DNA of 32,000 bases from Xylella taiwanensis (lineage in GTDB: Bacteria; Pseudomonadota; Gammaproteobacteria; Xanthomonadales; Xanthomonadaceae): positions 990,001 through 1,022,000 of the forward strand of contig NZ_CP053627.1 of assembly GCF_013177435.1 (NCBI RefSeq). Direction: 5' to 3'. Position 1 is the first letter of the stretch; every line of letters begins with the position of its first letter. The notes beneath the pieces were generated by a model. That model had not been told where the DNA came from. It ran no database searches and saw only the letters and a list, made by a program, of their open reading frames with translations. Shown in pieces: positions 5,419 to 32,000 of this stretch. The position numbers and the translations under genes are program-made.

Positions 5419-8400
5419 ATGATACAAATCCTCAGCGTGGTCGTAGCGTGTATCTGGATATGTGCTGCCCAGGCTGAGCAGGAACAGATTTTGGATGAGT
5501 TCGAGGATGTTTCTTCCTGGAAGCTTGTGCTTTCTGATCACGTGAGTGGCACCTTGCGCCAAGTGGCAGTGGCTTCCGGGGGGTATGCACTGTGTTTGGA
5601 TTACAATTTCAATGGTGTTTCTGGTGACGTTGGTATCCGTCGTGAGCTGCCGATCCAGTACTCTGAAAATTACCAGTTCTCTTTTTTAGTGCGCGGTGAT
5701 GCGCCAGCCAATGACTTGCAATTGAAGTTGCTCGATGTGAGTGGCGACAATGTGTGGTGGGTCAATCGAACTAAGTTCGAGGCGCCACCTAATTGGACAC
5801 TGGTAAGTTATCGTAAGCGTCACATCGAAAAGGCTTGGGGCCCAGATACGGATAAAACGCTGCGCCGCAGCGCGCAGATTGAGTTCAATGTCCACAATAG
5901 CGTTGGTGGGCGTGGGAGTATCTGTTTCGACAGGCTTGCGTTGAAGGCGTTGCCTTCCCCGGATACTTCTCCGTTGACCGCTGCGGCAATTACCGACACT
6001 GCTCCAGCGCTTGAGCATCGCTTGATTGATGGCAGGCTCGATACCTTTTGGTTAAGTAGTGGAATTAAGCAGCAGACTGTCACCCTGGACATGGGGAGAC
6101 CACGGGAGATTGGGGGTGCGGTGATCGACTGGGTGCCAGGATTGCAGGCGACACGCTACACGGTCCGTGGTTCAATCGACGGTCGTCGCTGGAAGGTGCT
6201 GCGTAACGTTATTGCCGGTACTTATCCCACCCACTGGCTAGCGTTACCGGAGACTGAGGCGCGTTATGTGCGCTTCGATCTGCAGGACGGCCCGAACTGG
6301 CGTTATGGGATTAAGGAGATTCATTTACAGCCGTTAGCGTTCGCTGCGACGCCGAACGACTTTATCAAGTCTTTAGCTTCGCTTTGGCCACGTGGCAGCT
6401 TCCCACGCGGTTTTTCGGGCGAGCAGTCTTATTGGACCATCCTTGGTCTGGACGGCGGTAGCGAACAGGGGTTGATCAACACAGATGGTGCAATCGAGGC
6501 GACTAAGTCCGGTTTCAGTATTGAGCCCTTTGTGGTGATGGACGGTAACCGCTTGCTACGCTGGTCCGACGTGAGCAGTGAGCAGAGTCTGCAAGAAGGT
6601 TATCTGCCGATTCCGCGTGTGGAGTGGCGCCACGACCAAGTTAATCTACAGGTGACTGCATTCGTACAAGGTACACCTGAGCAGGCGCAAGTGGTGGCCC
6701 GCTACCAACTGCGCAACACGAGTAAGCAGGCGCGTGATTTTGCGCTTGCGCTGGCGGTACGCCCGTTCCAGGTGAATCCACCTTCGCAGTTTCTCAATAC
6801 GCCTGGTGGTATCAGTCGGATTGATCAGCTTGTGTTCAACGGTACTCAAGTCAGTGTTAACGGCAAGCCGCGCGTGTTCACTTCGCGGGCACCGGATGCG
6901 GCATTCGCCACTTCATTCGATGCCGGTATGGATGTCGTCCATCTGGCCCAAGCACCGCTGCCACATACTACTCAGGTGAATGACGATAGTGGCTTGGCGT
7001 CTGGAGTCATGTTATTTCGCTGGCATCTTCAGCCAAACGAAATTCGCGAGATCGCGGTGTTGATACCGCAAAACGGGAGCCCCGGATGGTCTAGTGGTTT
7101 TGATGCCAAACAGGCGCAGCAGCAGGTTGCGCAGATGTGGCACGACAAGCTCGATTTGGTGCGGATCGAGGTGCCTACCGAAGGTCGACCGATCGTCGAT
7201 ACCTTGCGTACCGCAATGTCGCATATGCTGATTTCGCGGGATGGGTCAAGTCTGCAACCTGGTACACGCTCTTATTCGCGTAGTTGGATCCGTGATGGTG
7301 CAATGATTTCCGAGGCTTTGCTGCGACTGGGCCGTGAAGATGTGGTGCGCGATTACATCAATTGGTTCTCACCGTATCAATTTGCTAACGGCATGGTGCC
7401 ATGTTGCGTGGATCACCGTGGTAGTGATCCGGTTCCGGAGAATGACAGTCATGGGGAGTTGATTTACACCATCGGTGCGTATTATCGCTACACAGGTGAC
7501 CGTGATTTCCTGGCGGCGATGTGGCCGCATGTCAATGCGGCGGCAGCCTATATGGACACGTTGCGTTTGAGCGAACGCACCGAGGCCCATTTCATGCGTG
7601 ATCCGGCTTTCTACGGGATGATGCCGGCGTCAATCAGCCATGAGGGCTATTCGGCCAAACCGGTACATGCGTATTGGGATAATTTTTGGGCGTTGCGTGG
7701 GTATGAAGATGCGGCGCATCTGGCGAGCGTGTTGGATAAGCCTGAGGATGCTGTGCGTTTGAGCGCTTCACGGGACGAGTTCGCCGCTGACTTGTCTGCT
7801 TCGTTGCGTTCGACGGTTCGCAATCATGGTATCGATTATCTTCCTGGATCAGCAGAACATGGTGACTTTGATGCGACCTCAACAGCGGTCGCGTTGGCGC
7901 TGGAAGGAGAACGGTCCTTACTGCCGCAGGATTTACTCGCTAATACTTTTGAGCGTTACTGGACTCAATTTGTTGAGCGCCGTGATGGCAAGCGCAAGTG
8001 GAAGGATTACACTCCGTATGAGTGGCGTAATGTTTCTGCTTTCGTGCGTTTGGATTGGCGTAACCGTGTCTGGGATGCGGCCACGTTTTTTCTCAGAGAC
8101 CGTGCGCCGCCGGCATGGAACCAGTGGGCTGAGGTTGTTTCGCACACGCCTAACGTGCCGTTCTTTGTGGGTGATCTGCCGCATGCTTGGGTTGCTTCGG
8201 ACTTTGTGCGTTCGGTACTTGACATGTTTGCCTACACACGTGAGTCCGATGCCAGTCTGGTGATTGCGGCCGGTGTACCGGTGCATTGGTTTGGAGGTGA
8301 GGGTGTGGCTTTACACGATCTGCGTACGCCTCATGGACGGCTGAGCTACCGCATTCAGGGAAGCGAGAAGCAATTACGCATTGAGCTGAAGTCTGGACTG

Positions 8401-8583
8401 CTGATGCCATCTGGCGGTGTGGTGTTCCGTTGGCCGTATGCTGGCGTACCCGGTGCGTCCAGGATTAATGGTGAAGTTGCGGCTTGGCAGGGGCGAGAAC
8501 TACGTATTTTGCGGTTGCCGGCGACGGTGGAAATTGATATGCCGGCGGCCACGCTACACCGTACCGAGCGCGTGGGGCCATGA
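5419..8583 (+). CDS. Exported multidomain protein: N-terminal beta-sandwich-like region, F5/8 type C (discoidin) domain, C-terminal glucoamylase-like (alpha/alpha)6 region
   Basis: The ORF track starts at 5200 inside the permease gene. In-frame ATG 5419 gives MIQILSVVVACIWICAAQA, a signal peptide, 5 nt after the permease stop. The discoidin-like stretch is at about 6000-6335 (RLIDGRLDTFWLSS...ATRYTVRGSIDGRRWKVL...ARYVRFDL...IKEIHL). Downstream, SYSRSWIRDGAMISEALLRLG resembles the GH15-type W-x-RD helix-barrel motif. Confidence 0.7.
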   Translation: MIQILSVVVACIWICAAQAEQEQILDEFEDVSSWKLVLSDHVSGTLRQVAVASGGYALCLDYNFNGVSGDVGIRRELPIQYSENYQFSFLVRGDAPANDLQLKLLDVSGDNVWWVNRTKFEAPPNWTLVSYRKRHIEKAWGPDTDKTLRRSAQIEFNVHNSVGGRGSICFDRLALKALPSPDTSPLTAAAITDTAPALEHRLIDGRLDTFWLSSGIKQQTVTLDMGRPREIGGAVIDWVPGLQATRYTVRGSIDGRRWKVLRNVIAGTYPTHWLALPETEARYVRFDLQDGPNWRYGIKEIHLQPLAFAATPNDFIKSLASLWPRGSFPRGFSGEQSYWTILGLDGGSEQGLINTDGAIEATKSGFSIEPFVVMDGNRLLRWSDVSSEQSLQEGYLPIPRVEWRHDQVNLQVTAFVQGTPEQAQVVARYQLRNTSKQARDFALALAVRPFQVNPPSQFLNTPGGISRIDQLVFNGTQVSVNGKPRVFTSRAPDAAFATSFDAGMDVVHLAQAPLPHTTQVNDDSGLASGVMLFRWHLQPNEIREIAVLIPQNGSPGWSSGFDAKQAQQQVAQMWHDKLDLVRIEVPTEGRPIVDTLRTAMSHMLISRDGSSLQPGTRSYSRSWIRDGAMISEALLRLGREDVVRDYINWFSPYQFANGMVPCCVDHRGSDPVPENDSHGELIYTIGAYYRYTGDRDFLAAMWPHVNAAAAYMDTLRLSERTEAHFMRDPAFYGMMPASISHEGYSAKPVHAYWDNFWALRGYEDAAHLASVLDKPEDAVRLSASRDEFAADLSASLRSTVRNHGIDYLPGSAEHGDFDATSTAVALALEGERSLLPQDLLANTFERYWTQFVERRDGKRKWKDYTPYEWRNVSAFVRLDWRNRVWDAATFFLRDRAPPAWNQWAEVVSHTPNVPFFVGDLPHAWVASDFVRSVLDMFAYTRESDASLVIAAGVPVHWFGGEGVALHDLRTPHGRLSYRIQGSEKQLRIELKSGLLMPSGGVVFRWPYAGVPGASRINGEVAAWQGRELRILRLPATVEIDMPAATLHRTERVGP

Positions 8584-8907
8584 AAAGGGTGTATCTTGGA
8601 CAAGGTGTACCTGGGTAGCGAAGTTTGTGCGTTTTGTTGTTGCTGGGGTTCTGCACGAGTGCGATGAATGGCACTAATTGATGATGGGAGCATGGGAGCG
8701 TCGCTGGTTCAACGATCCCTCTAAAAGAGGATCCACTGAAGTTTGTGTTGTTCGTGTGTCAAGTTTGGATTGACCATATGGTGCGCTTCCAGCAGTACCC
8801 ACTGGTTGTGGGTGGGGTTGAAGTTGGATCCTGACGGGTGTTGAGCCTCAGATAAGGATGGAGTGTAGATATGCAACCCTTGGTTCGTTGCGTGGCTTGG
8901 TGGCGGG

Positions 8908-10128
8908 CTAGCTGTGTAGGCGATTGTAGATACTCAAGCCGGCGATCCAGACCCCGAGCATGCTGCCGAAGTTTGTGAATAAGAAGGTCAACATCACCTT
9001 TGAAACCCGGTTTTTATACCAGCCATATAGGGTCTGTGCGTCGTCGCGTAAGGTCAGGAAGTCCTGGTAGGCTGGCTTGCGCATATGAACCTCGACCAGT
9101 GCGGCGAAGGCACCAGTTGGTAGGCTTAGCCGGAACGGCTTAAACGGCGCGACCAGTGATGCCACCAGCACACTTAATGGGTGGCTGCCTGCTAATGCGC
9201 AGCCGAGTCCGGCCATGACACTGGTGTATAATGCCCATTGCAGCAAAAGGTCTGTGCCCATTGCCAAGCCACCGCGCAAAAATCCGACCACAATACCAGT
9301 TGCGATAAGTGTCATCAGTCCCAGCGTGAACCAGGGGACCCGTTTCTTCTGTTGTACTTTTTCCAGTATGGCACGCAGCTCGGTTGGTGGTTCGATGTCA
9401 TCCTCCAGATGTTTAGCCAATCCAGTTAAATGACCTGCACCGACAACCACCAGTACTTTCCGCGTTGCAATGTTTACTTCCTCGCGCAGGCGGGCCGCCA
9501 TGTAGCGGTCACGCTCGGCGATAATGGTCTGGTATAGCTCCGGGCTTTCGCTGGCGAAGTCGCCAAAGCTAGCTTCGAGCATGTCGCCTTGCTTGAGTTT
9601 TTCAATTTCTTCTTCGCCGACTTCATCGGCGGCGAACAGCCCAGCGATCAGTCCACTGCCCAGCTTCAATTTCCCGAAGAAGCCAAGCTTGGCCGAGGCA
9701 CGCTTAAAAGTAAGGCCGACTTCACGGTCGATCAAATGTACGGGGAGATCGCGTTCGCGTGCCATGGTCACTGCGGCCTTCAATTCTGCACCTGGTTCGA
9801 TGCCTAACTGCTTGGCTAGGCGCCGTTGGTATGCCGCGAGAGCCAGGTTGGCTGCGAATAAGGCCAATTGGCCCTTACGTATCACCTGTATCAGGTCAAG
9901 CTTAGCTAACGTATCCGGATCGCATAGTGCTTGCAGGCGCTGTGCATCCAGTTCGACAGCGATGGCGTCATAGCAGCCACTTCCTACCTCTTGTTTGACT
10001 GCAGCCACACTGGCTTGTGAGACGTGAGCAGTGCCGAGTAGCGTGTAGTGCACGCCATTGCGTTCAACCACACGTAGAGGTTGCCCTGTGAGGGCGTCTT
10101 GTTGCGGGGAAACAGAGGGAATCATCAA
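8908..10128 (-). CDS. TraB/GumN family protein
   Basis: 406-aa ORF. N-terminal VHYTLLGTAHVSQASVAAVKQEV and GAGHLTGL are typical of the TraB (pheromone-shutdown-like) family. The C-terminal third is hydrophobic (predicted TM helices). Confidence 0.7.
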   Translation of the reverse strand: MMIPSVSPQQDALTGQPLRVVERNGVHYTLLGTAHVSQASVAAVKQEVGSGCYDAIAVELDAQRLQALCDPDTLAKLDLIQVIRKGQLALFAANLALAAYQRRLAKQLGIEPGAELKAAVTMARERDLPVHLIDREVGLTFKRASAKLGFFGKLKLGSGLIAGLFAADEVGEEEIEKLKQGDMLEASFGDFASESPELYQTIIAERDRYMAARLREEVNIATRKVLVVVGAGHLTGLAKHLEDDIEPPTELRAILEKVQQKKRVPWFTLGLMTLIATGIVVGFLRGGLAMGTDLLLQWALYTSVMAGLGCALAGSHPLSVLVASLVAPFKPFRLSLPTGAFAALVEVHMRKPAYQDFLTLRDDAQTLYGWYKNRVSKVMLTFLFTNFGSMLGVWIAGLSIYNRLHS

Positions 10129-10249
10129 AAAATTCGTCCAGAAGAGGGTAGGATATCTGTATTAGGCAGATCCACCGCTTGACGATGGAACGCTGTGATC
10201 ATTGGCATCTCATTCATGCAATGTCTTGTAGGGCTGCAGCGTCTACACC

Positions 10250-11137
10250 TTAGTCGATGTAGCGTTTGAGCAAGTCGCCATAGGCGTCGATGCGACGGTC
10301 GCGCAGAAATGGCCAGACCCGTCGTACGTGCTCGCTGCGTTGCAGGTTGATTTCGCATGTTAGAATCTCTGGTCCGTGGCTATTGGCTTCGGCGAGGAAC
10401 TCGCCTTGCGGGCCGAGTACGTGGCTGTTCCCCCAAAAGCGAATGCCTGACGTGCCGAGCGGTGATGGTTCGTGGCCGGCACGGTTGCAACTGAGCACTG
10501 GTAAACTATTAGCAACGGCGTGACCACGGTGGCTCAGTAACCAAGCGTCGCGCTGGCGGGTTTGTTCGTCGTATTCATCATTCGGATCCCAGCCGATTGC
10601 AGTTGGGTACAGCAGCAATTCGGCGCCCGCCAGTGCCATCAATCGTGCCGCCTCTGGGTACCATTGATCCCAGCACACTAGAACACCGAGACAGCCGACC
10701 GATGTAACAATTGGCTTGAAGCCGATGTCACCTGGTGTGAAGTAGAACTTCTCGTAGAAACCAGGATCGTCTGGGATGTGCATCTTACGGTATTTACCGA
10801 GTAGGTTGCCGTCCTTTTCCAATACCACCGCAGTATTGTGGTAGAGGCCTGCGGCACGGTGTTCGAACAGTGAGCCGACAAGTACCACGCCATGTTGCTT
10901 AGCCAGTGCACCCAGGCGTTCGGTACTTGGACCTGGAATCGGCTCGGCTAAGTTGAATTCGCTGATCGATTCGTGTTGACAGAAGTATGCACTGTTGTGT
11001 AATTCATGCAGCAATACCAGTTTGGCGCCCTGTGCTGCAGCCTCAGCTACACGCGCTTCGATGATGCTTAGATTAGCCTCGGCATTGCCATGGTTGTGCT
11101 CCTGGATCAGTGCTACGGGGAGAATATGACGGTTCAT
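10250..11137 (-). CDS. aguB: N-carbamoylputrescine amidase (carbon-nitrogen hydrolase family)
   Basis: 295-aa ORF with nitrilase-superfamily blocks (LVLLHELHNSAYF, YRKMHIPDDPGFYEKFYFTPGD, LGVLVCWDQWYPEAAR containing the catalytic Cys). It sits directly downstream of agmatine deiminase. Confidence 0.8.
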   Translation of the reverse strand: MNRHILPVALIQEHNHGNAEANLSIIEARVAEAAAQGAKLVLLHELHNSAYFCQHESISEFNLAEPIPGPSTERLGALAKQHGVVLVGSLFEHRAAGLYHNTAVVLEKDGNLLGKYRKMHIPDDPGFYEKFYFTPGDIGFKPIVTSVGCLGVLVCWDQWYPEAARLMALAGAELLLYPTAIGWDPNDEYDEQTRQRDAWLLSHRGHAVANSLPVLSCNRAGHEPSPLGTSGIRFWGNSHVLGPQGEFLAEANSHGPEILTCEINLQRSEHVRRVWPFLRDRRIDAYGDLLKRYID

Positions 11138-11218
11138 GACACATTTCCATGAAGGATGCGCACAGGGTAGCGTGCTCGTGCGTGATGTTGAGAGTGGTTG
11201 TGGGCCCAGTAGAGAGTG

Positions 11219-12274
11219 TTATCCAATACATGGTGATGTGGCGAGCAGGCCAGCCGGTATCTGTATGGTGATACAGTGCAGGCTTCCGTTTTGCCAGATC
11301 AAGGGACGGCACGGTACTGGCACGATTTCACGCTCGGGAAATGCGTCGGCCAGCACTGCTTGTGCGAGTGCATCGGCTGGATCTCCATAGATTGGCATCA
11401 GGACCGCACCTTCGATGATTAGAAAGTTGGCGTAAGACGCAGCTAAGCGTCGATCCTCGTCCATAATTGGCTTTGTCCATGGCAGTGGGAACAGCTTGTA
11501 GGGATGTCCGTCGGTGGTGCGTAGTGTGGTTAATTCAGTGCCCATTGCTTGCAATTCAGCGTAATGGCTGTCACTGATGTCGTTGCAGGATTGATAGACA
11601 ATACTGTCGGTCGAGGCGAAGCGGGCAAGAGTATCAATATGGGCGTCGGTATCGTCGCCTTCAAGATAGCCATGTTCCAGCCACAGCACCCGGTCTTGTG
11701 CCAACCATGCAGTTAAGTTGGCATCCAGTGTTGTACGTGTGTGCTGCGGGTGGCGTTCGTGCAGGCAGCGCCAAGTGGTCAGTAGGGTGCCCGCGCCATC
11801 TGTCTCGATTGCGCCACCTTCCAGAGTGAAGTCGATGCTGTGCATCAGGGCGTTCGCGAACAGACCGCTGGCGTGCAATACGCTCACCAACTGGTCGTCC
11901 AGCTTAGCTTCGAACTTACCGCCCCAGCCCGTAAAGCGGAAGTCCAGTAAGCAGAAGTTGCCATTCGTGCCGACCAAGGTGATCGGCCCTGAGTCGCGCA
12001 CCCAAGTGTCATTATAAATGGCCAAGGTGAAGCGTACCCGTTTCATCATTACATGTGCTGAACGCAGTCGCGCCTCGGCATAGGTTTGCAAGCCGTCGTC
12101 GACAACGCAGATGATGACTGTCTGAAAGCGAGTGATCGCTGCTACCAGTGCTATGTAGGTTTCCTCGACTTCAGGCAGACGTGCGGACCAGTCAGTATTG
12201 GCATGCGGCCAAGCGATTAGAATGGCAGACTGCGGTTCCCACTCGGCGGGGAAGCGGAACGGGAGTGTCGTCAA
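11219..12274 (-). CDS. aguA: Agmatine deiminase
   Basis: 351-aa ORF. FPAEWEPQSAILIAWPH, WVRDSGPI, HIDTLARF and C-terminal GSLHCITIQIP (catalytic Cys) match the agmatine deiminase / Porphyromonas-type peptidyl-arginine deiminase family. Confidence 0.85.
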   Translation of the reverse strand: MTTLPFRFPAEWEPQSAILIAWPHANTDWSARLPEVEETYIALVAAITRFQTVIICVVDDGLQTYAEARLRSAHVMMKRVRFTLAIYNDTWVRDSGPITLVGTNGNFCLLDFRFTGWGGKFEAKLDDQLVSVLHASGLFANALMHSIDFTLEGGAIETDGAGTLLTTWRCLHERHPQHTRTTLDANLTAWLAQDRVLWLEHGYLEGDDTDAHIDTLARFASTDSIVYQSCNDISDSHYAELQAMGTELTTLRTTDGHPYKLFPLPWTKPIMDEDRRLAASYANFLIIEGAVLMPIYGDPADALAQAVLADAFPEREIVPVPCRPLIWQNGSLHCITIQIPAGLLATSPCIG

Positions 12275-12321
12275 TTGTGTTTCACTTTCAGTGATTGCAC
12301 TCTGTGGCAGGATGGCCGTAA

Positions 12322-12654
12322 TCAGCGCATTGCCGGTGCTTTAGGTCCAATTTCGTCGGTGCTTGCGCTATTCATGACGACGTTGATGACTTTCCCTTTC
12401 TCGAAGTAAACGGTGTAATTAGGGTAGACCCAACGATCAATTTGTGGCCATTTCCGCTTTTGACCGCCGCTTGGAGGCAGTTTCTGTGTGGGTGTGCCGT
12501 AATTCGCTTCCACCTGGGCCATAGATTGATTTCGCGTTGGTGCTGCGGTTGGCTTAATTTTAACGCGATCAATCAGTAGCGTCTCGGCTTGACAAGTTAC
12601 AGCGATCCCCAGTAACGCGGCCAGCGTGCATGCGGCGATATGGCCGTTTTGCAT
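12322..12654 (-). CDS. Small exported protein of unknown function
   Basis: 110-aa ORF with a signal-peptide-like N-terminus (AACTLAALLGIAVTCQA/ET). It lies 47 nt upstream of aguA on the same strand. I recognised no family. Confidence 0.5.
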   Translation of the reverse strand: MQNGHIAACTLAALLGIAVTCQAETLLIDRVKIKPTAAPTRNQSMAQVEANYGTPTQKLPPSGGQKRKWPQIDRWVYPNYTVYFEKGKVINVVMNSASTDEIGPKAPAMR

Positions 12655-12770
12655 GTTTTTATTTCCTCAATTGGATGATGTTGAACTGCGATTACAACAA
12701 AAAACATTGATGAAAAATGCTTTGGCCACATACGTAAAAGGTTTATCAACGTTTGTTCAATGCGGCAGAA

Positions 12771-12796
12771 AAACAAAAAACCGCCCTGAGGCGGTT
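12771..12796 (-). terminator. Rho-independent terminator downstream of rpmJ
   Basis: Plus strand reads aaacaaaaaaCCGCCctgaGGCGGtt. On the minus strand this is a GC stem (AACCGCC/GGCGGTT, 4-nt loop) followed by TTTTTTGTTT, about 30 nt after the rpmJ stop. Confidence 0.65.
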
Positions 12797-12826
12797 TTCC
12801 AGGACACACTACCACAAAGCTGCGCT

Positions 12827-12952
12827 TCAGCGTTGACGCGCCTTAAAGCGAGGATTGGACTTACAAATCACGAAGATCTTACCGCGGCGGCGGATCACCT
12901 TACAGTCACGGTGACGTGTCTTTGCTGACTTTAGTGAGGATAGAACTTTCAT
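12827..12952 (-). CDS. rpmJ: 50S ribosomal protein L36, type B (non-zinc, YkgO-like form)
   Basis: Not in the ORF track (41 aa). The minus strand reads [41 protein letters not shown] and ends at TGA 12827-12829. GAGGTG sits 6 nt upstream of the ATG. The sequence resembles E. coli YkgO rather than the CxxC-containing RpmJ. Confidence 0.85.
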
Positions 12953-12974
12953 ATACACCTCGGCGAAACGCTTG

Positions 12975-12996
12975 TCTTGTATAGCTCTTGTATAGC
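12975..12996. repeat. Perfect tandem duplication of an 11-bp unit (tcttgtatagc x2)
   Basis: Read directly: 12975-12985 and 12986-12996 are identical. The repeat lies 23-44 nt upstream of the rpmJ start codon, in the rpmJ/cmk divergent intergenic region. Confidence 0.9.
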
Positions 12997-13179
12997 TAGA
13001 GTTAGGCGTTCATGCATTCTCTTAATAAATCAAAATGCACCAGACGCTAAAATGACCAGGAAGCTAATTGATGTTGATAATGCTATCTGCCTTTAAAGTA
13101 GACTTTCAAGTGCTTATGGCACATACATAAACAGGCGGAGCTACAATCTCTAGCTTTAATCGCGATTACTGGAGTTTGG

Positions 13180-13851
13180 ATGACTGACCTTGTGCCTGTC
13201 CTTACCATTGATGGCCCGTCCGGGGCTGGTAAGGGTACAGTCAGTAGGATTGTGGCTGCGCGGCTGGGTTGGCATTACTTGGATTCAGGGGTGTTGTATC
13301 GGGCTGTTGGAGTGGCGGCTGGCTGGGCAGGTCTTGATGTGTCCGACACAATGGCTTTAGTGAGTTGCGCGTTCGATACTCATGTCAATTTTGCCGAGTG
13401 TGCTGATGGGGATATGCGTATCCTGGTGAATACGATCGACGCCACCGACGAGCTGCGTATGGAAACCGCTGGTGTGCTGGCTTCGACAATTGCTGCTGTC
13501 TCTGAGGTGCGCGCTGCATTGAAGGAGCGTCAACGTATGTTTCGACGCGGTCCAGGATTAGTTGCAGATGGTCGTGACATGGGTACGGTAATCTTTCCGG
13601 ATGCCCAATATAAGGTTTTCTTGACTGCTAACGCCGAGGAGCGCGCTCAACGCAGGCATAAACAGTTGATGAAGAAGGGTGTTTCGGTTATGTTCACCAC
13701 TTTGCTGGACGAAATTAGGGCGCGCGATGCGCGTGATGCTTGCCGATCTGTAGCGCCGTTAAGGCCGGCTGATGATGCCTTGTTAATCGATAGTACCCGT
13801 ATTGGGGTCGATGAAGTCGTTGCTCAGGTACTTGCTTTGGTGACTGATTGA
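13180..13851 (+). CDS. cmk: Cytidylate kinase
   Basis: 223-aa ORF with the P-loop [16 protein letters not shown] and [15 protein letters not shown] lies 6 nt upstream of the ATG. It has the conserved position upstream of rpsA. Confidence 0.9.
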
Positions 13852-14052
13852 AGTAAGAAGTTTAGGTTCCTTTGGACAGAATCCCCAGTGCTTGTGGTGT
13901 CCAATGGGGTGCCAGAATCAAATATGCAAGGTGTTGTAGACAGGCTCCGTTGCGCGATGCGTGGCGGTTTATCCACTTAAACTTTAGGGTGGACGGTGTA
14001 TCTGGCGATAAAGCTTTGAGTGACCGTCCGTGTGTTTAACCGAGTAAATCAA
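13852..14052 (+). promoter_or_regulatory. rpsA 5' leader, structured and without a Shine-Dalgarno sequence
   Basis: The 201-nt gap contains complementary segments (ccccag...ctgggg-like and GGACGGT...ACCGTCC). There is no purine-rich SD in ttaaccgagtaaatcaaATG. This resembles the SD-less, autoregulated rpsA leader of E. coli. The call rests on that analogy only. Confidence 0.3.
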
Positions 14053-15729
14053 ATGACTGAATCTTTTGCTGAACTGTTCGAAGCCAGCCAAGCGAACCTG
14101 GCGAAGCTAAAACCGGGTGCCATCGTTACTGGGACCGTTGTGGATGTCCGTGGTGACGTAGTGGTTATTAACGCCGGTTTGAAGTCCGAAGGCATCGTGC
14201 CGATTGAGCAGTTCCGTAATGACGCTGGTGAGATCGATGTTGGAGTGGGCGATCAGGTCAAAGTTGCGTTGGATTCCATTGAGAATGGCTTTGGCGAGAC
14301 TATTCTGTCGCGTGAAAAGGCTAAGCGTTCGATGGTGTGGGATGAGCTGGAAGAGGCGTTGGAGAAGAATGAGACTATCAGTGGCCGTATCAGCGGTAAG
14401 GTCAAGGGAGGGTTCACCGTTGACATTAAGGATGTCCGCGCGTTTCTTCCCGCTTCTTTGGTCGATGTGCGCCCGGTTCGGGATCCTGCTTACTTGGAGG
14501 GTAAGGAGCTGGAGTTTAAGCTCATTAAGCTAGATCGTAAGCGTAACAATGTGGTTGTTTCTCGTCGTGCGGTGGTCGAAAGCGAGCATTCCGAGGAGCG
14601 CGAGCAGCTGTTGGATAAGTTGCAGGAAGGCGCAGTTTTGACTGGTACGGTTAAAAATATGACCGATTACGGGGCATTCGTGGATCTAGGCGGAGTCGAT
14701 GGATTACTTCACATCACTGACATGGCATGGAAGCGTGTGCGCCATCCGTGTGAGGTGGTTAATATCGGCGATGAGGTAGAGGTACGTGTACTGAAGTTTG
14801 ATCGTGAACGCAATCGTGTCAGCCTTGGTTTGAAGCAACTGGGCGAGGATCCTTGGGATAACATCTCGCGTCGTTATCCGGCTAACTGTCGGGTATTTGG
14901 TAAGGTTTCCAACGTTACTGACTATGGTGCGTTTGTTGAGATCGAGGCAGGTGTCGAAGGTTTGGTGCATGTCTCAGAAATGGATTGGACCAACAAGAAT
15001 GTCAATCCTTCCAAGGTTGTTCAGGTTGGTGATGAGGTTGAGGTCATGATTCTGGATGTGGACGAGGAACGTCGTCGCATCTCGTTGGGCATGAAGCAGG
15101 TCGCTGCCAATCCCTGGGAAACCTTTGCCGTTACCCATAAGAAGGGTGACAAGGTGAGTGGTCAGGTTAAGTCGATCACAGACTTTGGCATCTTTATCGG
15201 TTTGGAAGGTGGTATCGATGGTTTGTTGCACTTGTCTGACATTAGCTGGAACACTACCGGCGAAGACGTAGTCCGTAACTTCAAGAAGGGGGATACCCTA
15301 GAAACAGTTGTCTTGGCTGTCGATCCAGAGCGTGAGCGCATTTCGCTGGGTGTGAAGCAGCTGGAACAGGATCCTTTTGGCCAATATATGGCTACTCACC
15401 CGAAAGGCTCCAAGGTCGCTGGCATCGTTAAGGAGGTTGATGTCAAAGGGGCCTTGATTGAGCTGGCTGACGGAATCGAAGGTTACGTTTCGGCACGCGA
15501 CATTGCCAACGAGCGTGTAGAGGACGCGAGTCAGTACCTGAAGGTAGGTGATAGTGTGGAAGCTAAGTTCATTGGCATGGACCGTAAGGGGCGTACTTTA
15601 CAGTTGTCGATTAAAGCCAAAGATGATGCCGAGATGCGTGAAGTTCTTGAGGAATACCAATCCTCTTCTAGCGGTACTACAAAATTGGGTACGTTGCTGA
15701 GAGAGCAACTCGGTAATAAGTCCGAGTAA
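14053..15729 (+). CDS. rpsA: 30S ribosomal protein S1
   Basis: ORF 14020-15729. The canonical start [10 protein letters not shown] is at ATG 14053. There are six S1-domain repeats (recurring G-x-V-x(n)-GAFV/FVDLGG-x-DGLLH-x-S motifs). Confidence 0.95.
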
Positions 15730-15830
15730 TTGGTTGCTCCTGATTCTCCTTTATAAAATTAGGGATCGGATCGGCCTAGGTGTTCTGCCTGGACCGATTC
15801 CGGTGTCAAGCAATTTTTTGTCTTTTACCG

Positions 15831-16145
15831 ATGACCAAGTCCGAATTAATCGAGATCCTGGCCAAGCGCCAAGCGCATTTGAAGTCAGATGACGTCGATC
15901 TTGCGGTCAAGTCATTATTAGAAATGATGGGCGAAGCCCTATCTGAGGGAGACCGCATTGAAATCCGTGGTTTCGGTAGTTTCTCCATACACTACCGTCC
16001 ACCGCGTTGTGGGCGTAACCCTAAGACCGGTGAATCAGTTGCATTACCTGGCAAACATGTGCCTCACTTTAAGCCTGGCAAAGAATTGCGTGAACGTGTG
16101 TCAAGTATTGTACCTCTGGCGGAATGTGGCGGCGCCACTGAGTAA
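15831..16145 (+). CDS. ihfB: Integration host factor subunit beta
   Basis: ORF 15780-16145. The canonical start MTKSELIE is at ATG 15831. [45 protein letters not shown] is the HU/IHF signature. Confidence 0.9.
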
Positions 16146-24331: not shown

Positions 24332-25900
24332 ATGACGCCGAATATCCATCACGACAAAATTCTTATCCTCGATTTCGGTGCGCAGTACACGCAATTGATT
24401 GCCCGCCGTATCCGTGACATCGGTGTCTACTGCGAAGTCTGGGCCTGGGATCATTCCCCCGAAGAGATCCTGAACTTCGGAGCCAAAGGGATTATCCTGT
24501 CCGGCGGCCCCGAATCGACCACATCCCCAGGCGCGCCCACAGCCCCGCAACACGTATTCGACAGCGGCCTGCCCATCCTCGGCATTTGCTATGGCATGCA
24601 AACGATGGCCGTACACTTTGGTGGCACGACCGAGGCCGCTAACAAACGCGAGTTCGGCCACGCCTCGGTTCAGGTCATTTGCCCGGATACCTTACTTTCC
24701 GGCTTGTCCGATCATCACCCTGAGTCCCGTCTGGATGTGTGGATGAGTCATGGCGACCATGTTGCGCAAGTGCCGCCTGGCTTCACCATCACCGCGGTCA
24801 CTGACCGCATCCCCGTTGCGGCGATGAGCCGCGAAGATAAGCGCTGGTATGGCGTGCAATTTCACCCGGAAGTGACCCATACCTTACAGGGGCAGGCTTT
24901 GCTGCGCCGTTTCGCGGTCGATGTGTGTGGCTGCCAGACCTTGTGGACCGCGGCTCACATTATTGAAGACCAGATTGCGCGCGTGCGTGAACGTGTCGGT
25001 AGCGATGAAGTCATTCTCGGCCTGTCCGGTGGCGTTGATTCTTCCGTCGTGGCCGCTCTGTTACATAAAGCCATTGGACGGCAACTGACGTGCGTGTTTG
25101 TGGATACCGGCCTGCTTCGCTGGCAGGAAGGCGACCAAGTGATGGCCATGTTTGCTGAACACATGGGCGTCAACGTGATCCGTATCAATGCCGCAGTGCG
25201 TTACTTCAATGCACTGCAAGGTGTTTGTGATCCAGAGGCCAAGCGCAAGATCATCGGTCACCTCTTCATCCAGATATTCGAGGAAGAAGCCAGCAAGCGA
25301 AAGCACGCCAAATGGCTGGCCCAAGGCACGATTTATCCTGACGTGATCGAGTCGGCCAGCAGCAAGACCGGCAAGGCCCACGTGATCAAGACCCATCACA
25401 ACGTCGGCGGCTTGCCGGAGCACATGACGCTCGGCATCATCGAACCATTACGCGAATTGTTCAAAGATGAAGTGCGCCGCCTTGGCATCGCACTCGATTT
25501 GCCCCGCACGATGGTGTATCGCCATCCATTCCCAGGCCCGGGCTTGGGCGTGCGTATCCTGGGTGAGGTCAAGCCAGAGTATGCCGAGCTGCTGGCCAAG
25601 GCTGACGCGATTTTTATCGATGAATTGCATCGCGCCGGCCTGTACGACAACGTCAGCCAAGCCTTTGCCGTCTTTCTTCCAGTGAAATCGGTCGGTGTCG
25701 TCGGTGATGCCCGCGCTTACGAATGGGTGATTGCATTGCGTGCGGTCGAGACCGTCGATTTTATGACCGCACATTGGGCGCCGCTGCCGTATGACTTCCT
25801 CAGCATCGTGTCCAACCGCATCATCAATGAACTACGGGGCGTCTCCCGCGTGGTCTACGATATTTCCGGCAAACCGCCAGCGACGATTGAGTGGGAGTGA
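24332..25900 (+). CDS. guaA: GMP synthase (glutamine-hydrolysing)
   Basis: ORF 24209-25900. The conserved start region [28 protein letters not shown] is at ATG 24332. It has the GATase ICYGMQ motif, the PP-loop [11 protein letters not shown], and an intact canonical C-terminus [10 protein letters not shown]. Confidence 0.95.
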
Positions 25901-27353: not shown

Positions 27354-27773
27354 TGCCGAAGAACACGGTCATGCTTCTATTGCGTGTGATGGCTTGCAAT
27401 GGCTACGTGGTCACTGGACACCCTTGCATGTCATTCCGTTATGGACCTGCGTGCGTGGCGTTGCAGGTCAATGTAGCCCAGCACGGTTGACGTCTGCCGC
27501 GTGCTGCGTCTGAAGCAGCTGCAAGTCCTGCTTGGATGCAGGTTGGTGCTGGCTGCATGCTTGGCGTGAACCCGCTCGGGTAGGGCAGGTTTTGCGTAGG
27601 TAGACATCGGGCTTCGCAGCGCTACTACGAGGGGTTTGCTGGTGCGCCTCAATCCACGTGTCCACTGCGGCCAAGCCCTACATGAAGTTCAGTACCTATC
27701 GGAACAACGTGCTGGAGCGAAGCACGGCCAAGTCAAGCGCTCTTGCGGTGTCTTTTTCGACTTCACTCAATGG

Positions 27774-28766
27774 TTACTTCAAGTCTTGTTCGAGCCAATA
27801 GCGTTCTTCTTCGGCGACGAGCTCCTGCATTGCGTTCAGTTCAACGGACCGCGCTGACCTGCGGCGGCCCGCGATCTTTTCAGATGTCATCTCCGACTGA
27901 AATTCGGTCTGGATGCACGCTCCCAGCACTCGCTGGAACTCCAGTGCATCGGTGCGTGCGCAGCGCACGGACCCATCCGCATCATTGATCACCATCAGCA
28001 TCACAGAATTCAAGCGAAGCAGGTGGCGCCAGCGGCGATCCATTGACACGAAATACGGGATGAAGAAGTCGGCCTGGTTAGATTTGGCTGTGGCGTTTTG
28101 CTCCATGACACGGAGCAATGTCATGTCCCAGGCCATGCCGCGAATCTTCTGCAACATCTCAGTGGACCTGCCCATGATGGGGCCGAAGAAGGGCGACCCC
28201 TGGCTAGAGGTCATGCCGCTCCAGATCAGCTGCAATTCGGTAAGCGGGATCACCCCTAGCTGATGAATGCTGAAACGGCACAATTCACGCAGGATGTGAT
28301 GCTTGTCCCGTTTGCGTTCCTCATGCCAAAGTCGAGCGAACCGCACTAGCAGCGCCTGCACTACAGCGCTCTTTGCCTCGTGTTCATCAATACACTTACT
28401 AGTGTGTGACTCGGTCAGAAAGGCTTCGGCATCGGGCCGTAGCAGGGCCTTCAGGTCCTCGTATGCAGCATCAAAAACGAAGCGGCTGGGATCATGCTGA
28501 AAGGCATGCCAATCCAGGTGGTCGAGCATGCGGAAAGCGATCAGCGTATTCAAGGGGCGCTCGTTTGAGGGCTCGTCGCGGGCTAGACGCCTGTTCTCAA
28601 TGAGAAACGACATCACGTCGAATTGCACATGGCGGTTTCGAGCCTTCAGCATGAGAATTTGGATGACCCTATCGCGATCAGCGCGTTGAATGTTCTCGCC
28701 AGCAATGGCCGCACGCCGCTTCTCTGCAACATTCGAGTCGAAGCTGAGAGAGAAATCGATCAACAC
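27774..28766 (-). CDS. Hypothetical protein, no family recognised; possibly the C-terminal 330 codons of a disrupted ~420-codon gene
   Basis: 330-codon ORF whose first codon is GTG 28766 (next in-frame ATG at 28652). It has no signal peptide or TM segment and looks helix-rich and charged. It lies 71 nt plus one small ORF downstream of qatD on the same strand. Confidence 0.5.
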   Translation of the reverse strand: MLIDFSLSFDSNVAEKRRAAIAGENIQRADRDRVIQILMLKARNRHVQFDVMSFLIENRRLARDEPSNERPLNTLIAFRMLDHLDWHAFQHDPSRFVFDAAYEDLKALLRPDAEAFLTESHTSKCIDEHEAKSAVVQALLVRFARLWHEERKRDKHHILRELCRFSIHQLGVIPLTELQLIWSGMTSSQGSPFFGPIMGRSTEMLQKIRGMAWDMTLLRVMEQNATAKSNQADFFIPYFVSMDRRWRHLLRLNSVMLMVINDADGSVRCARTDALEFQRVLGACIQTEFQSEMTSEKIAGRRRSARSVELNAMQELVAEEERYWLEQDLK

Positions 28767-28835
28767 GTTCGACCTGCCACCCGTGAGACAGGCATGGACG
28801 CTGGTTTCGGGCGATATGAAGAACGCACGCGGCCC

Positions 28836-29036
28836 TCAAAAAAACGAGGTTACAGCCTCGCTGGAGGACACATTGAGCCCGAGCTCCAAGTCAACGGCAC
28901 CCGGAGCATCGGTGCAGAAGACGGTGCGGATGAATGCGCATTCGGCGGCGCGGTTTGCTTCAATGGCATCGAGTGCAGCCATGTCACGGTTGAGGAGGGC
29001 GGAGAACAGCGCGTCGCCAATGGGGATGTCAGGCAT
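28836..29036 (-). CDS. 66-codon ORF, in the same frame as 27774-28766 and separated from it by a single TGA; probable N-terminal fragment
   Basis: ATG 29036 is preceded by AAAGAG 7 nt upstream. 29036 and 28766 are 270 nt apart (a multiple of 3). The only stop between them is TGA 28836-28838. Confidence 0.35.
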   Translation of the reverse strand: MPDIPIGDALFSALLNRDMAALDAIEANRAAECAFIRTVFCTDAPGAVDLELGLNVSSSEAVTSFF

Positions 29037-29107: not shown

Positions 29108-29857
29108 CTATACGAGCAACGCGCGCAGGTTGTCGCGGATGATGCGAGCCAGGTCGCTCGCAGGCCGTCCATGCAAACGGCCCAGTGCCTCCACTACGCT
29201 TGCTACATCAGCCGGTTGCGAAGGTCTGTCGCCAGTGCGGGTGAAGGGGCCATCGGTTTCCGTCAGCAGCCGATCCAAGGGGATTGCTTGCACCAGCGGC
29301 GCGTGCCTCTCATGGCCCAGCATTCTGGCATTGATTGAGAAGTAGCAGCCCAGCTCCAGCGCACGCTTTGCCTCGGTTTTGGTTCCGGTGAACCAATGGA
29401 GAACAATTTTCCCGCGCTCGGGCGGCAGATGTGTCTCGACAAGATCGAGCACCGCCTTAGCCGACCTGATGCTGTGGACCGTGATGATCTTGTCGCCGGC
29501 CTGCGCACAACGCTGCAACACGTGCTGGAAGACACGCTGCTGCGCATCAAGCGACTTGAAGTACCGAGGGCCGGCGTCCAACCCGACTTCGCCAACATAA
29601 CGCGTCTCCGCGAGATACCGATCCCACAACTCGATCTCGCTTTCACGCTCCGCGACCAATTGCGGGTGCAGCCCCAGCGCTGCTCGAACATGCTTTGTGC
29701 GCTGCGCGAGTGCGTGATTGCGGGGCCACGCGCGCGGAGTCGTCGTTACGGCCAGGGTGAACACGCCGGACGCCTCCGCATCCTGGACCGCCGCCGCATG
29801 ATCCGGGTAGAGATCAAGGTGGCAGTGGAAGTCCACCAGGTTTGCAGAGGCGATCAT
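29108..29857 (-). CDS. qatD: TatD-family metal-dependent hydrolase/DNase, QatD-like
   Basis: The ORF track starts at 29974, overlapping qatC by 104 nt. In-frame ATG 29857 lies 13 nt after the qatC stop, with AGGA upstream, and gives MIASANLVDFHCHLDLY. TatD motifs: HCH (29819-29827), GEVGLD, ITVHSIRS, VLHWFTG, LLTETDGPF. Confidence 0.8.
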   Translation of the reverse strand: MIASANLVDFHCHLDLYPDHAAAVQDAEASGVFTLAVTTTPRAWPRNHALAQRTKHVRAALGLHPQLVAERESEIELWDRYLAETRYVGEVGLDAGPRYFKSLDAQQRVFQHVLQRCAQAGDKIITVHSIRSAKAVLDLVETHLPPERGKIVLHWFTGTKTEAKRALELGCYFSINARMLGHERHAPLVQAIPLDRLLTETDGPFTRTGDRPSQPADVASVVEALGRLHGRPASDLARIIRDNLRALLV

Positions 29858-29870
29858 GCACGCATCCTGG

Positions 29871-31235
29871 TCAACCTGGTCTGGCTTCAACACCGTCGAT
29901 GAGCCGTGCGACTTCGTCAAGGCCGCGCCGGTAGACATCGGCAAGCTGATCCAAGTGTGCGGCTTCATCGGCAAGCGAGCCGGGCTTGTGGATCAAGAGG
30001 TTCGCGAGCTGAGGCTTGCCCTTCAAGCGCTCGATCGCGTACTGGAACGATCTGACCTGCACTCCTGTCGCCTGGCGTGTGTCCAATGGCTCCGCGTGAA
30101 GATCGGGTACGGTGTACGTCGTCGGGTCGTTCCCCGTACCCCATGCGGCTGTCAACGCTGCGCGACGGATCAGACAGGGCAGGCAATAGCCACATTGCTC
30201 AATACTACGTCCTAGCCATCTGACCTTGGCGGGAGATGAGCACGACAACGCATCTGTTGCCAGCGTCTTCAAGAGATCTGGGTTGCGGCAGGCGGCGGCC
30301 ATCTCGCCCTTCGTCTTGTCCCAGTAAGGGTTCCGAATCGTGCCGTTAATGCCGAGTGCGACGAGCAGGTCGTTCCACCTCGCTATGTAATACGGATGCG
30401 TGGTGCGGGTGCTGTTTGATCCCAAGCGCAGCGGATCCAAAGGCACATTCAGCGCGATCAGCCCATTTTCGGGGACACGCAGGACGAAACGCTGCCCAAG
30501 CCCGGTGCCCGCGAACACCCCGAGAGCGAAGCACAGGAACGACCTGCCGCGGGTGCTGTTCTCCTTGTCACCGTCTTCCACAAGGCCATCGGCAAAGGTC
30601 ATGTTGACCCGCAGTCGTTCGAATGAGGTGTTGTAATGTTCTTGCAGGCTTTTGGACAATCTTTCCTGTGCCTGGCTTGTCGCGCCCTCGCCGCAGTGGC
30701 TGACCAGTAGAGGCGTGGCGCCGTCCTCCAACAGATCAATGGCCCCAATCAAGCTGTCTAATCCCCCTGAGAACAGGCTGATGGAATCAAAGAGCGGAGC
30801 GATCAAGTCCAGAGACGTTGCTTGGGCAAGCGTCGCGAACTGATCTGGACGTGCTCTGAACACGATCGTCCAGAGATCACCCGTCAGGAAGTCCAGCGAC
30901 TGCTTCAGTAGCGCTGCTGCTGCATTCCAACGCACGGGATCACTGACTGGCACGACCAGCCGTATTTCGCGCGTCCACGCGTCCTGCGAGTGCTTGGTAC
31001 GAGAGATGCCTGTGTCTGCTGCGTGGATATGGGCCGCCAGGATCAGCAGGTCAATGCCGATCTCCGAGGGAAACACACCGAGGTTCTTCAAGCGAGTCAG
31101 CGCATGACCGATGCCATGCGCTAAGGATTTATCCTTGGAAACGAGTAGCACGTAGGTGCTGTGTTCGTCGACACCCGCCGTGACCTTGAAGTTGTCATCA
31201 GGACCGAAGTGGCCCGCCAAGAGGTGTCGCTTCAT
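29871..31235 (-). CDS. qatC: QueC-like PP-loop ATPase with N-terminal extension, QatC-like
   Basis: 454-aa ORF. The PP-loop SGGLDS is at aa 156-161 (nt 30753-30770, checked by hand). The Cys cluster CGYCLPC is at aa 348-354 (nt 30174-30194), as in the QueC zinc site. The start overlaps the upstream stop (ATGA, 31232-31235). Confidence 0.8.
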   Translation of the reverse strand: MKRHLLAGHFGPDDNFKVTAGVDEHSTYVLLVSKDKSLAHGIGHALTRLKNLGVFPSEIGIDLLILAAHIHAADTGISRTKHSQDAWTREIRLVVPVSDPVRWNAAAALLKQSLDFLTGDLWTIVFRARPDQFATLAQATSLDLIAPLFDSISLFSGGLDSLIGAIDLLEDGATPLLVSHCGEGATSQAQERLSKSLQEHYNTSFERLRVNMTFADGLVEDGDKENSTRGRSFLCFALGVFAGTGLGQRFVLRVPENGLIALNVPLDPLRLGSNSTRTTHPYYIARWNDLLVALGINGTIRNPYWDKTKGEMAAACRNPDLLKTLATDALSCSSPAKVRWLGRSIEQCGYCLPCLIRRAALTAAWGTGNDPTTYTVPDLHAEPLDTRQATGVQVRSFQYAIERLKGKPQLANLLIHKPGSLADEAAHLDQLADVYRRGLDEVARLIDGVEARPG

Positions 31236-31960
31236 TGATCCGCCTCCAGATCGGCCAGGGTGTGCAAGATTGCAAATGCAGACGCGTACAGCGCATCGAC
31301 GAACCCTTGAATGCGCTCGGGCGTGAGATTCGGCGTTTCCGCACGGGCCCGCGTCAGCGCGTCGCTCACCCCACCCCGGATGAAGTCGCGCAACTGCTGT
31401 TCGACGCGGTGTGCAGCTTGCGTGTCCGCTGGCATGGTCACAGCCTTTGTCCCAATGTCGTTGTAGATGCGGGCTTCTATCGCGTGGGTGGCATACAGCT
31501 CGAAGACTGTCTGCATTTGATCCGGCGTGCAGGTGTCCAGATCGGTAAGCCCTTCACTTATCAGTTCGTCGATGGTTTCAAAGTACGCCTCGCGGGGGAT
31601 GCCTGCATCGACGGTGCCCGCGCCTGGGCAGACGTAGTCGGCCAGACCAATGAGGATGCCCGTGAGTGGGCGTCCGGCTAACGACTCCAGGTCCAGCGCT
31701 CGTAGCGCCTCGCGCACCCCCCTTGCTTGTGCATCGGCCAGAAAACCAAGCAACCGTGCCCCCGCTCCACGCGAGGCGCCCATACGTTGCGCCGCCTGGC
31801 GCGCGCCGCCGGCCGATGTTGCAACGTATGTTGAGACGGCGCGGCCCAGGTTGACACGGTCGCTGCCACCCGAAGCGGCAAATCGCGTGAAGCTGTTGCG
31901 CGCATCGGAGAAGCGTCGCGGGTCTGCCGTTGCGGGCATGGGTGGCCGGTTCGGCGGCAT
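31232..31960 (-). CDS. qatB: Protein in the QatB position of a Qat-type operon (start uncertain; frame stays open to the window edge)
   Basis: 242-aa ORF from ATG 31960. It is assigned by position only (immediately upstream of and coupled to qatC); I do not recognise a domain. The same frame has no stop up to base 32000 (...AAPPGNGAAPDNV-M), and neither ATG 31960 nor ATG 31939 has an SD. Confidence 0.45.
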   Translation of the reverse strand: MPPNRPPMPATADPRRFSDARNSFTRFAASGGSDRVNLGRAVSTYVATSAGGARQAAQRMGASRGAGARLLGFLADAQARGVREALRALDLESLAGRPLTGILIGLADYVCPGAGTVDAGIPREAYFETIDELISEGLTDLDTCTPDQMQTVFELYATHAIEARIYNDIGTKAVTMPADTQAAHRVEQQLRDFIRGGVSDALTRARAETPNLTPERIQGFVDALYASAFAILHTLADLEADQ

Positions 31961-32000
31961 GACGTTGTCTGGTGCTGCGCCATTGCCAGGAGGGGCGGCA

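Follow-up and report, generated by a model that had tools for sequence, protein, structure and literature searches.

The right-hand end of a 32,000-nucleotide stretch of the Xylella taiwanensis chromosome (contig NZ_CP053627.1, positions 990,001 to 1,022,000 of the forward strand; hereafter called the window) carries the genes qatB, qatC and qatD, the first of which is cut by the window edge. It is highly probable that these genes are part of a complete and canonical QatABCD operon that was brought in by an integrative island targeting guaA, the integrase of which is now decayed. QatABCD is an anti-phage system reportedly described by Gao and coworkers in 2020. The identity of the four genes, their order and spacing, the published functional motifs and the island context are established here, and by every defining feature that can be tested the operon is a member of the QatABCD family. 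All four X. taiwanensis proteins are already named QatA, QatB, QatC and QatD of the Qat anti-phage system in the public NCBI records, so that the finding as such is known; the system, its architecture and this very copy have been catalogued, and our analysis gives no new handle on what QatC conjugates or on how the modified QatB protein stops phages. A literature search on Xylella together with Qat, or on the accession numbers, found nothing.

Gene identity and layout of the qatABCD operon

As read from the list of open reading frames (ORFs) and from the sequence itself, qatB, qatC and qatD are co-directional on the minus strand and tightly packed (Table 1). The stop codon of qatB and the start codon of qatC overlap by four nucleotides in an ATGA (GATCAATGAAG), and 13 nucleotides separate the qatC stop from the qatD start (TGA CCAGGATGCGTGC ATG), precisely the layout given in a first-pass annotation that had been made from the letters of the window without database searches. 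We extended the contig by an exact look-up of the QatC protein, which led to two complete 2.82-Mb chromosomes (CP087686.1 and CP011800.1; loci L001 and L002) that are 100% identical to the window across all 12,130 overlapping nucleotides. In the extended contig the gene order qatA-qatB-qatC-qatD is complete and runs in one direction, and all four reading frames are intact. The qatA gene (L002 7216-9147; 643 amino acids) lies wholly outside the window, 90-2021 nucleotides past its edge, and its stop codon ends one base into the qatB start codon, a one-nucleotide overlap with the sequence TGATG.

Table 1. Position of the qat genes and of the features between guaA and the right edge of the window (position 1 is the first nucleotide of the window).
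Feature	Position	Strand	Basis or remark
guaA (GMP synthase)	24332..25900	+	Pfam GATase and GMP_synt_C; gene call L001 15336-16904
Pseudogene of a P4-type tyrosine integrase, immediately downstream of guaA	26181..27350	+	tblastn with the intact L013 integrase
Gene of an uncharacterised family, 419-codon frame, broken	27774..29036	-	single in-frame TGA at 28836-28838
qatD, 249 amino acids, TatD-family (HxH, type II) metal-dependent nuclease, ATG at 29857	29108..29857	-	PADLOC, Pfam, NCBIfam, PDB
qatC, 454 amino acids, PP-loop ATP pyrophosphatase of the QueC family with Qat-specific extensions at both termini	29871..31235	-	PADLOC, NCBIfam, PDB
QatC codon 235, TGC (Cys)	30531..30533	-	read from the sequence
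qatB, 3' 256 codons and stop	31232..32000	-	5' part beyond the window edge

The first-pass annotation had expected an ATPase gene just beyond base 32000 on the minus strand. The ATPase was indeed found upon extension of the contig, in the form of the KAP NTPase gene qatA; what the window edge cuts is qatB itself, whose frame, when read by hand, contains no stop codon in 31961-32000, as had been noted. Full-length qatB (L002 9147-10004) encodes 285 amino acids, beginning with MGTS. Its first 30 codons (MGTSTAYGGPRGGTPLVPSWL...) occupy nucleotides 1-89 beyond base 32000, with the start codon 89 nucleotides past the edge. The ATG at position 31960 within the window is an internal methionine codon of qatB and not its start, which agrees with the observation that the in-window QatB sequence enters the PADLOC profile only at position 48.

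The same start-site problem pervades the public records, where qatB is annotated with 285 amino acids on eight contigs (the true MGTS start), with 242 on two and with 235 on 29; most annotations thus begin 43-50 codons late and lack the MGTS N-terminus. Gao et al. noted misannotation of this sort as well. Cloning qatB from one of the short-start records would give a dead construct, the MGTS N-terminus being essential for function (see below).

All four Qat proteins exceed the curated cutoffs of the NCBIfam equivalogs NF041923-NF041926, to which they match over their full length as other QatABCD proteins do, and the E-values against the curated Qat models (1e-105 to 1e-273) are far beyond chance. 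QatA, a KAP-family P-loop NTPase (Pfam KAP_NTPase), scores 1021.6 bits with PADLOC and 908 bits with NF041923 (cutoff 600). The in-window part of QatB has a PADLOC E-value of 2e-116, and the full-length protein one of 8.6e-130 over profile positions 1-293, together with 232 bits for NF041924 (cutoff 100) and matches to the Protein Data Bank (PDB) entries 9zee_A (1.7e-48) and 9vll_A. QatC is matched over its full length by PADLOC (3.9e-207; profile 1-452 of 453), reaches 535.9 bits with NF041925 (cutoff 280), and finds 9vlk (1.2e-124) and 9zee_B (7.4e-112) in the PDB. For QatD the corresponding values are 8.5e-125 with PADLOC, 351 bits with NF041926 (cutoff 230) and 6.6e-50 with Pfam TatD_DNase, and its PDB matches are 3gg7, an older structural-genomics entry (2.9e-67), and the Acinetobacter baumannii QatD structure 9xsn (5.3e-60). 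The PADLOC, NCBIfam and PDB matches of QatB, QatC and QatD bear out the proposal that the in-window genes are the B-C-D part of QatABCD. All the checks suggested along with this proposal spoke for it. The PADLOC Qat models and the Pfam TatD family were recovered; the Pfam QueC family (PF06508) matched QatC with no more than 15.9 bits (E = 0.0093), below its gathering score of 22, and in the zinc region only. Such a sub-threshold score is to be expected since QatC represents a divergent branch.

Functional motifs and proposed mode of action

Structural and biochemical data on Qat systems are contained in four papers from 2026 (PMC13279940; PMC13376578; PMC13639016; PMC13434339). They render the earlier remark that the Qat mechanism is poorly understood partly outdated; the published mechanism is still incomplete. 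The X. taiwanensis operon resembles the QatABCD systems of Pseudomonas aeruginosa, Escherichia coli and A. baumannii (PDB 9zee, 9zef, 9vlk, 9vll, 9xsn) in its four genes, their order and their tight junctions, and it shares with them the KAP Walker motifs of QatA, the MGTS and PxW motifs of QatB, the SGGxDS, Thr-x-Thr and four-cysteine zinc motifs of QatC and the HxH two-metal site of QatD.

In QatA, the Walker A motif reads GDWGAGKSS and the Walker B motif LIDDLD. QatB is an all-helical partner protein whose disordered N-terminal tail begins with MGTS and contains a conserved PxW motif (P18, W20); each of the residues G2, T3, S4, P18 and W20 is shared by 74-76 of 76 relatives, and both the MGTS N-terminus and PxW are essential according to the mutagenesis data of the 2026 structural papers. 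The motifs of QatC are SGGLDS at residue 156, STRTTHP at 275, CSSP at 332 and CGYCLPC at 348. Within them, S156-G-G-L-D160-S161, T276/T278 and the four cysteines C332/C348/C351/C354 are identical in 81 of 81 QatC sequences. Thr276 and Thr278 replace the Tyr/Asp pair with which QueC and Cap9 read 7-carboxy-7-deazaguanine (CDG), as reported in the 2026 structural papers, and the presence of Thr-x-Thr at this position suggests a different or an additional substrate. The HCH motif of QatD (residues 11-13) and its other ligands align with H8/H10, E86, H124, H148 and E194/D196 of the A. baumannii protein.

The 2026 papers describe a 1:1 complex of QatC and QatB as the minimal defense unit against some phages. 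In this complex, Gly2 of QatB sits next to the ATP alpha-phosphate in the QatC active site, and low levels of 7-amido-7-deazaguanine (NDG) were detected on the QatB N-terminal peptide by liquid chromatography-tandem mass spectrometry (LC-MS/MS). QatD, to which the QatB tail binds, is a two-metal enzyme with Mg-dependent 3'-5' exonuclease activity on single-stranded DNA and Ca-dependent apurinic/apyrimidinic (AP) endonuclease activity; it is inhibited by physiological levels of nucleoside triphosphates (NTPs), and its unleashing upon NTP depletion during infection has been proposed. QatA is a DNA-binding protein that assembles into 7-8-mers and influences which phages are covered. If the steps known from E. 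coli, P. aeruginosa and A. baumannii are carried over to X. taiwanensis, QatC and QatB would form a 1:1 complex in which the QatB N-terminus (Gly2, with the methionine removed) is threaded into the PP-loop site of QatC, and QatC would spend ATP to join a small molecule to the Gly2 amine. The tail of QatB would also tether QatD, which might then be freed when infection drains the NTP pools, and QatA, as a DNA-binding oligomeric KAP NTPase, would broaden the range of phages that is covered.

The integrative island at guaA

The 3' end of guaA is the integration site of the island that carries the qat genes. When the intact integrase of a syntenic locus (L013; see below) was used as a tblastn query, its residues 1-403 were recovered in the window across three reading frames, which identifies the window copy as a frameshifted pseudogene. 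Its C-terminal piece gave a weak Pfam Phage_integrase match in a stop-masked frame, and Pfam searches with the individual short ORFs between 26.1 and 27.5 kb found no integrase match; intact orthologues of the integrase carry the domains Arm-DNA-bind_3, Phage_int_M and Phage_integrase. The order guaA-integrase-QatABCD recurs in eight other loci, including those of Verticiella, Pigmentiphaga, Extensimonas, Cupriavidus and a Lysobacterales metagenome-assembled genome (MAG), and the integrase is intact in each of the three of these loci that were checked.

The G+C content of the Qat region (0.59-0.63) stands above that of the rest of the window (0.48-0.58). The profile of locus L001 displays no sharp left edge of the island. 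A search for direct repeats of the attachment (att) type in L001 4800-16000 yielded only two-copy matches of 14-20 nucleotides with mismatches, none of them at a plausible boundary. Integrative elements next to guaA (GIsul2 and the integrative mobilizable elements of the PIME family) have been described in the literature as carriers of immune systems. The island shares with these elements a P4-type integrase gene immediately behind the 3' end of guaA and the immune-system cargo. It differs from them in that the integrase is a frameshifted pseudogene here, alpA, rep and tra are absent among the called genes, and no att repeat was found.

Outside the window, between uvrA and qatA (L001/L002 5487-6927), lie an AbiTii-like gene and fragments of a gene for an XcyI-like type II restriction enzyme. 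The AbiTii-like gene is intact (298 amino acids; PADLOC 5.7e-38). The restriction enzyme is represented by two fragments that cover its C-terminal quarter only, and no methyltransferase gene was present beside them among the called genes. A side observation concerns the 90%-identity protein cluster that holds the 249-residue QatD of X. taiwanensis and otherwise consists of 298-amino-acid proteins named 'antitoxin'; a comparison of these proteins with the AbiTii-like gene found them to be unrelated, and their clustering with QatD is probably an artefact of the protein collection.

On the guaA side of the operon, positions 27455-27671 of the window hold a 218-nucleotide remnant (about 70% identity) of a gene of 225 codons that is intact in L013, where it lies on the minus strand (11951-12628) between a 419-codon gene and the integrase gene and matches the PADLOC candidate PDC-M06B (2.7e-84). 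In this locus, derived from a MAG labelled Telluria sp., the region 8001-15941 is an island syntenic with that of the window (qatD, the 419-codon gene, integrase and guaA), and its guaA gene is 83% identical to that of Xylella. Judged by this identity and by the synteny, a Lysobacterales origin fits better than the Burkholderiales label, and the contig may be mis-binned. The broken integrase and the broken neighbor gene agree with the decayed island next to guaA that had been recognized from the sequence, as does the organism, X. taiwanensis of the order Lysobacterales, with the plant-associated Xanthomonadales genome that had been surmised.

Relatives of the operon and signs of erosion

A scan that sampled one genome per species, and in which X. 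taiwanensis itself was not among the returns, gave 80 loci with QatC identities of 60-84%, mostly from Betaproteobacteria and Gammaproteobacteria. The genes qatB, qatC and qatD are present in the same order in all 80 loci, and qatA is found in 76; the remaining four contigs end before the position of qatA. This architecture matches the figure in the 2026 papers, according to which about 98% of Qat clusters have the full four-gene form. The closest QatC in this species-representative set is 84% identical and betaproteobacterial, and the betaproteobacterial affiliation of the closest relatives is explained by horizontal acquisition.

Several points weigh against a fully functional, canonical QatABCD system in X. 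taiwanensis. Residue 235 of its QatC protein is a cysteine, and the alignment of 81 sequences has a phenylalanine at this position in all 80 relatives. In two crystal structures, this residue (Phe235 in E. coli QatC, Phe237 in the P. aeruginosa protein) stacks on the adenine of ATP (PMC13639016; PMC13279940). The same QatC protein occurs on 32 contigs, and the F235C exchange is therefore real and fixed and not a sequencing error. In a concatenated alignment of QatA-D from 72 operons, we further counted the changes that a single sequence shows at a column which is invariant in all others: X. taiwanensis has 11 such singletons, as compared to 0-5 (mean about 1.9) in 17 relatives with a comparable nearest-neighbor identity (0.81-0.90), and a count of 12 is attained only by two sequences that are far more isolated. 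Besides F235C there are ten further unique substitutions at invariant columns, seven of which were named by the alignments of the individual proteins (E144G, F146L and G279A in QatB; D192A, V513I and V524L in QatA; R76G in QatC); QatD has none. The surroundings of the operon have decayed as well, as evidenced by the broken integrase, the broken neighbor gene and the restriction-enzyme fragments. A scan for sigma-70-like promoters and for terminators returned one promoter-like and eight terminator-like sites, not above the expectation from shuffled sequences; the sole notably placed site is a stem-loop at the premature stop codon of the neighbor gene on the qatD side. As to activity, protection from phages is reported in the 2026 papers for the Qat copies of E. 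coli, P. aeruginosa and A. baumannii alone, and no group reconstituted QatC activity with CDG and ATP in vitro.

The cysteine at position 235 of QatC in place of an invariant phenylalanine, the ten additional unique substitutions, the xylem-limited plant-pathogenic host and the decayed carrier island are what sets the X. taiwanensis operon apart from other QatABCD systems. One may therefore ask whether it is QatABCD by descent, yet a weakened or inactive relic that is being lost by drift along with the remainder of the island. We consider this alternative possible but rather unlikely. The exchange at the adenine-stacking residue, substitutions such as QatB E144G/F146L, QatA D192A and QatC R76G at columns that are otherwise invariant, the frameshifted integrase, the premature stop in the gene behind qatD and the fragmentary XcyI-like gene all speak in its favor. 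It is opposed by the intactness of the four qat reading frames, by the retention of every residue proven to be essential by mutagenesis (S156/S161 and T276/T278 of QatC; G2 and the tail motif of QatB) and by a QatD protein without any unique change; moreover, F235 itself is not among the mutants described in the accessible parts of the published Qat work. Xylella is a small-population, xylem-limited lineage in which mildly deleterious changes may build up genome-wide without loss of function. The excess of singletons may reflect relaxed constraint or else the drift that is generally expected in such a pathogen, and it is no demonstration of lost function. Collectively, F235C and the surplus of unique changes at invariant sites suggest that the activity of the X. 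taiwanensis Qat system may be reduced, and with 11 such changes versus 0-5 in the relatives, full activity is not certain.

With regard to the preferred reading of the locus as a complete QatABCD operon, Phe235 is not a defining trait of Qat, and the substitution would bear on the activity of the system rather than on its family membership. As a natural QatC variant, F235C could be used just as it stands to probe the control of Qat by the binding of ATP, and together with the other changes at invariant sites it offers a natural test of whether defense systems in a genome-reduced pathogen decay together with the islands that carry them. X. taiwanensis ranks among the quarantine pathogens of plants, and phage biocontrol is in use for the genus; an intact Qat operon could limit the phage host range in such applications.

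Other systems with QueC-like proteins

QueC-like proteins also occur in queuosine biosynthesis and in type IV CBASS, and the first-pass annotation had named CD-NTase and TGT-like genes as signs of one or the other; gene calling in the 21-kb locus returned none of these and no queuosine gene (queD, queE, queF, tgt). That an ordinary QueC enzyme for queuosine and a housekeeping TatD protein have become adjacent by accident has next to no probability; both the active-site motif and the scores with the family models rule it out. The weak Pfam QueC match next to a strong TatD_DNase match, and '7-cyano-7-deazaguanine synthase' as one UniRef name of the QatC protein, would fit this idea, and QatC does share with canonical QueC (PF06508) the PP-loop Rossmann core, the SGGxDS motif and the four-cysteine zinc site. 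The QueC match is nonetheless confined to the zinc region and stays below the gathering score, whereas the 454-residue protein, which has additional domains at both ends as well as a long Var3 loop, scores highly with the NCBIfam QatC model, reads its substrate with other residues (Thr276/Thr278 in place of Tyr/Asp), has no queuosine genes among its called neighbors and is encoded in a foreign island of high G+C content.

Type IV CBASS, in which the QueC-like Cap9 protein modifies a CD-NTase, is likewise ruled out, in this case by gene content, and its probability is vanishingly small. Its appeal lies in the chemistry: Cap9 and QatC share the QueC fold and a proposed conjugation to an N-terminal glycine, in that deazaguanylation of CdnD by Cap9 involves a QueC-family PP-loop enzyme that takes the N-terminal glycine of its partner into the active site, a substrate with an N-terminus of the MG(T/G)S type. 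In the X. taiwanensis locus, by contrast, the genes called in the 21 kb include no CD-NTase, no TGT-like Cap10 and nothing else of CBASS, and the partner of the enzyme is the all-helical QatB protein, which starts with MGTS and is neither a nucleotidyltransferase nor related to CD-NTases. QatC is also about 20 kDa larger than Cap9 and has the Thr/Thr pair instead of the CDG-reading Tyr/Asp.

An uncharacterized gene family represented next to qatD

The gene between the integrase pseudogene and qatD (Table 1) appears in the ORF list as two ORFs of 66 and 330 amino acids. It belongs to a family of 140 homologues, which are 413-426 amino acids in length when intact and whose hosts include Ralstonia, Stenotrophomonas, Achromobacter, Pectobacterium and P. 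aeruginosa. Its invariant acidic residues include D94, D100, E147, D304 and D332. Searches with Pfam, NCBIfam, PADLOC and PHROGs found no match for the family. For the Ralstonia member, AlphaFold2 gave a confident model (pLDDT 89.8, pTM 0.89), and a fold search with it against the PDB and BFVD gave no fold match, the best results being only E = 0.047 or TM = 0.26.

Members of this family are located directly behind qatD in two of the 80 Qat loci (intact in L013 and L037) and within 1.5 kb of it in two more. The Ralstonia member resides in a conjugative element beside AbiH fragments and AlpA, and an Achromobacter homologue adjoins a CBASS operon and BrxR at the 3' end of guaA. Defense systems and integrases are recurrent neighbors of the family. 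We raise, as a speculative and rather doubtful proposal, that the family serves an unrecognized function in immunity or island maintenance and travels with defense cargo at guaA-type integration sites; a role as accessory partner in some of the Qat operons is conceivable as well.

The guaA 3' flank of Achromobacter xylosoxidans (L086-L088, 400-9242) contains the CBASS operon (patatin, DncV-like and E1/E2 genes), BrxR and an Rce1-like protease. There, a gene of 433 codons overlaps the 413-codon homologue of the family by four nucleotides. The two may form a two-gene unit; the 433-residue partner had no match with PADLOC.

Remainder of the window

No tRNA genes were found in the window. Positions 718-25900 have an ordinary housekeeping look and encode a glucoamylase-like protein, an ABC sugar transporter, a gumN/TraB-family protein and an agmatine deiminase with a CN-hydrolase, followed in our inventory by cmk, rpsA, polysaccharide biosynthesis genes, folD, guaB and guaA.

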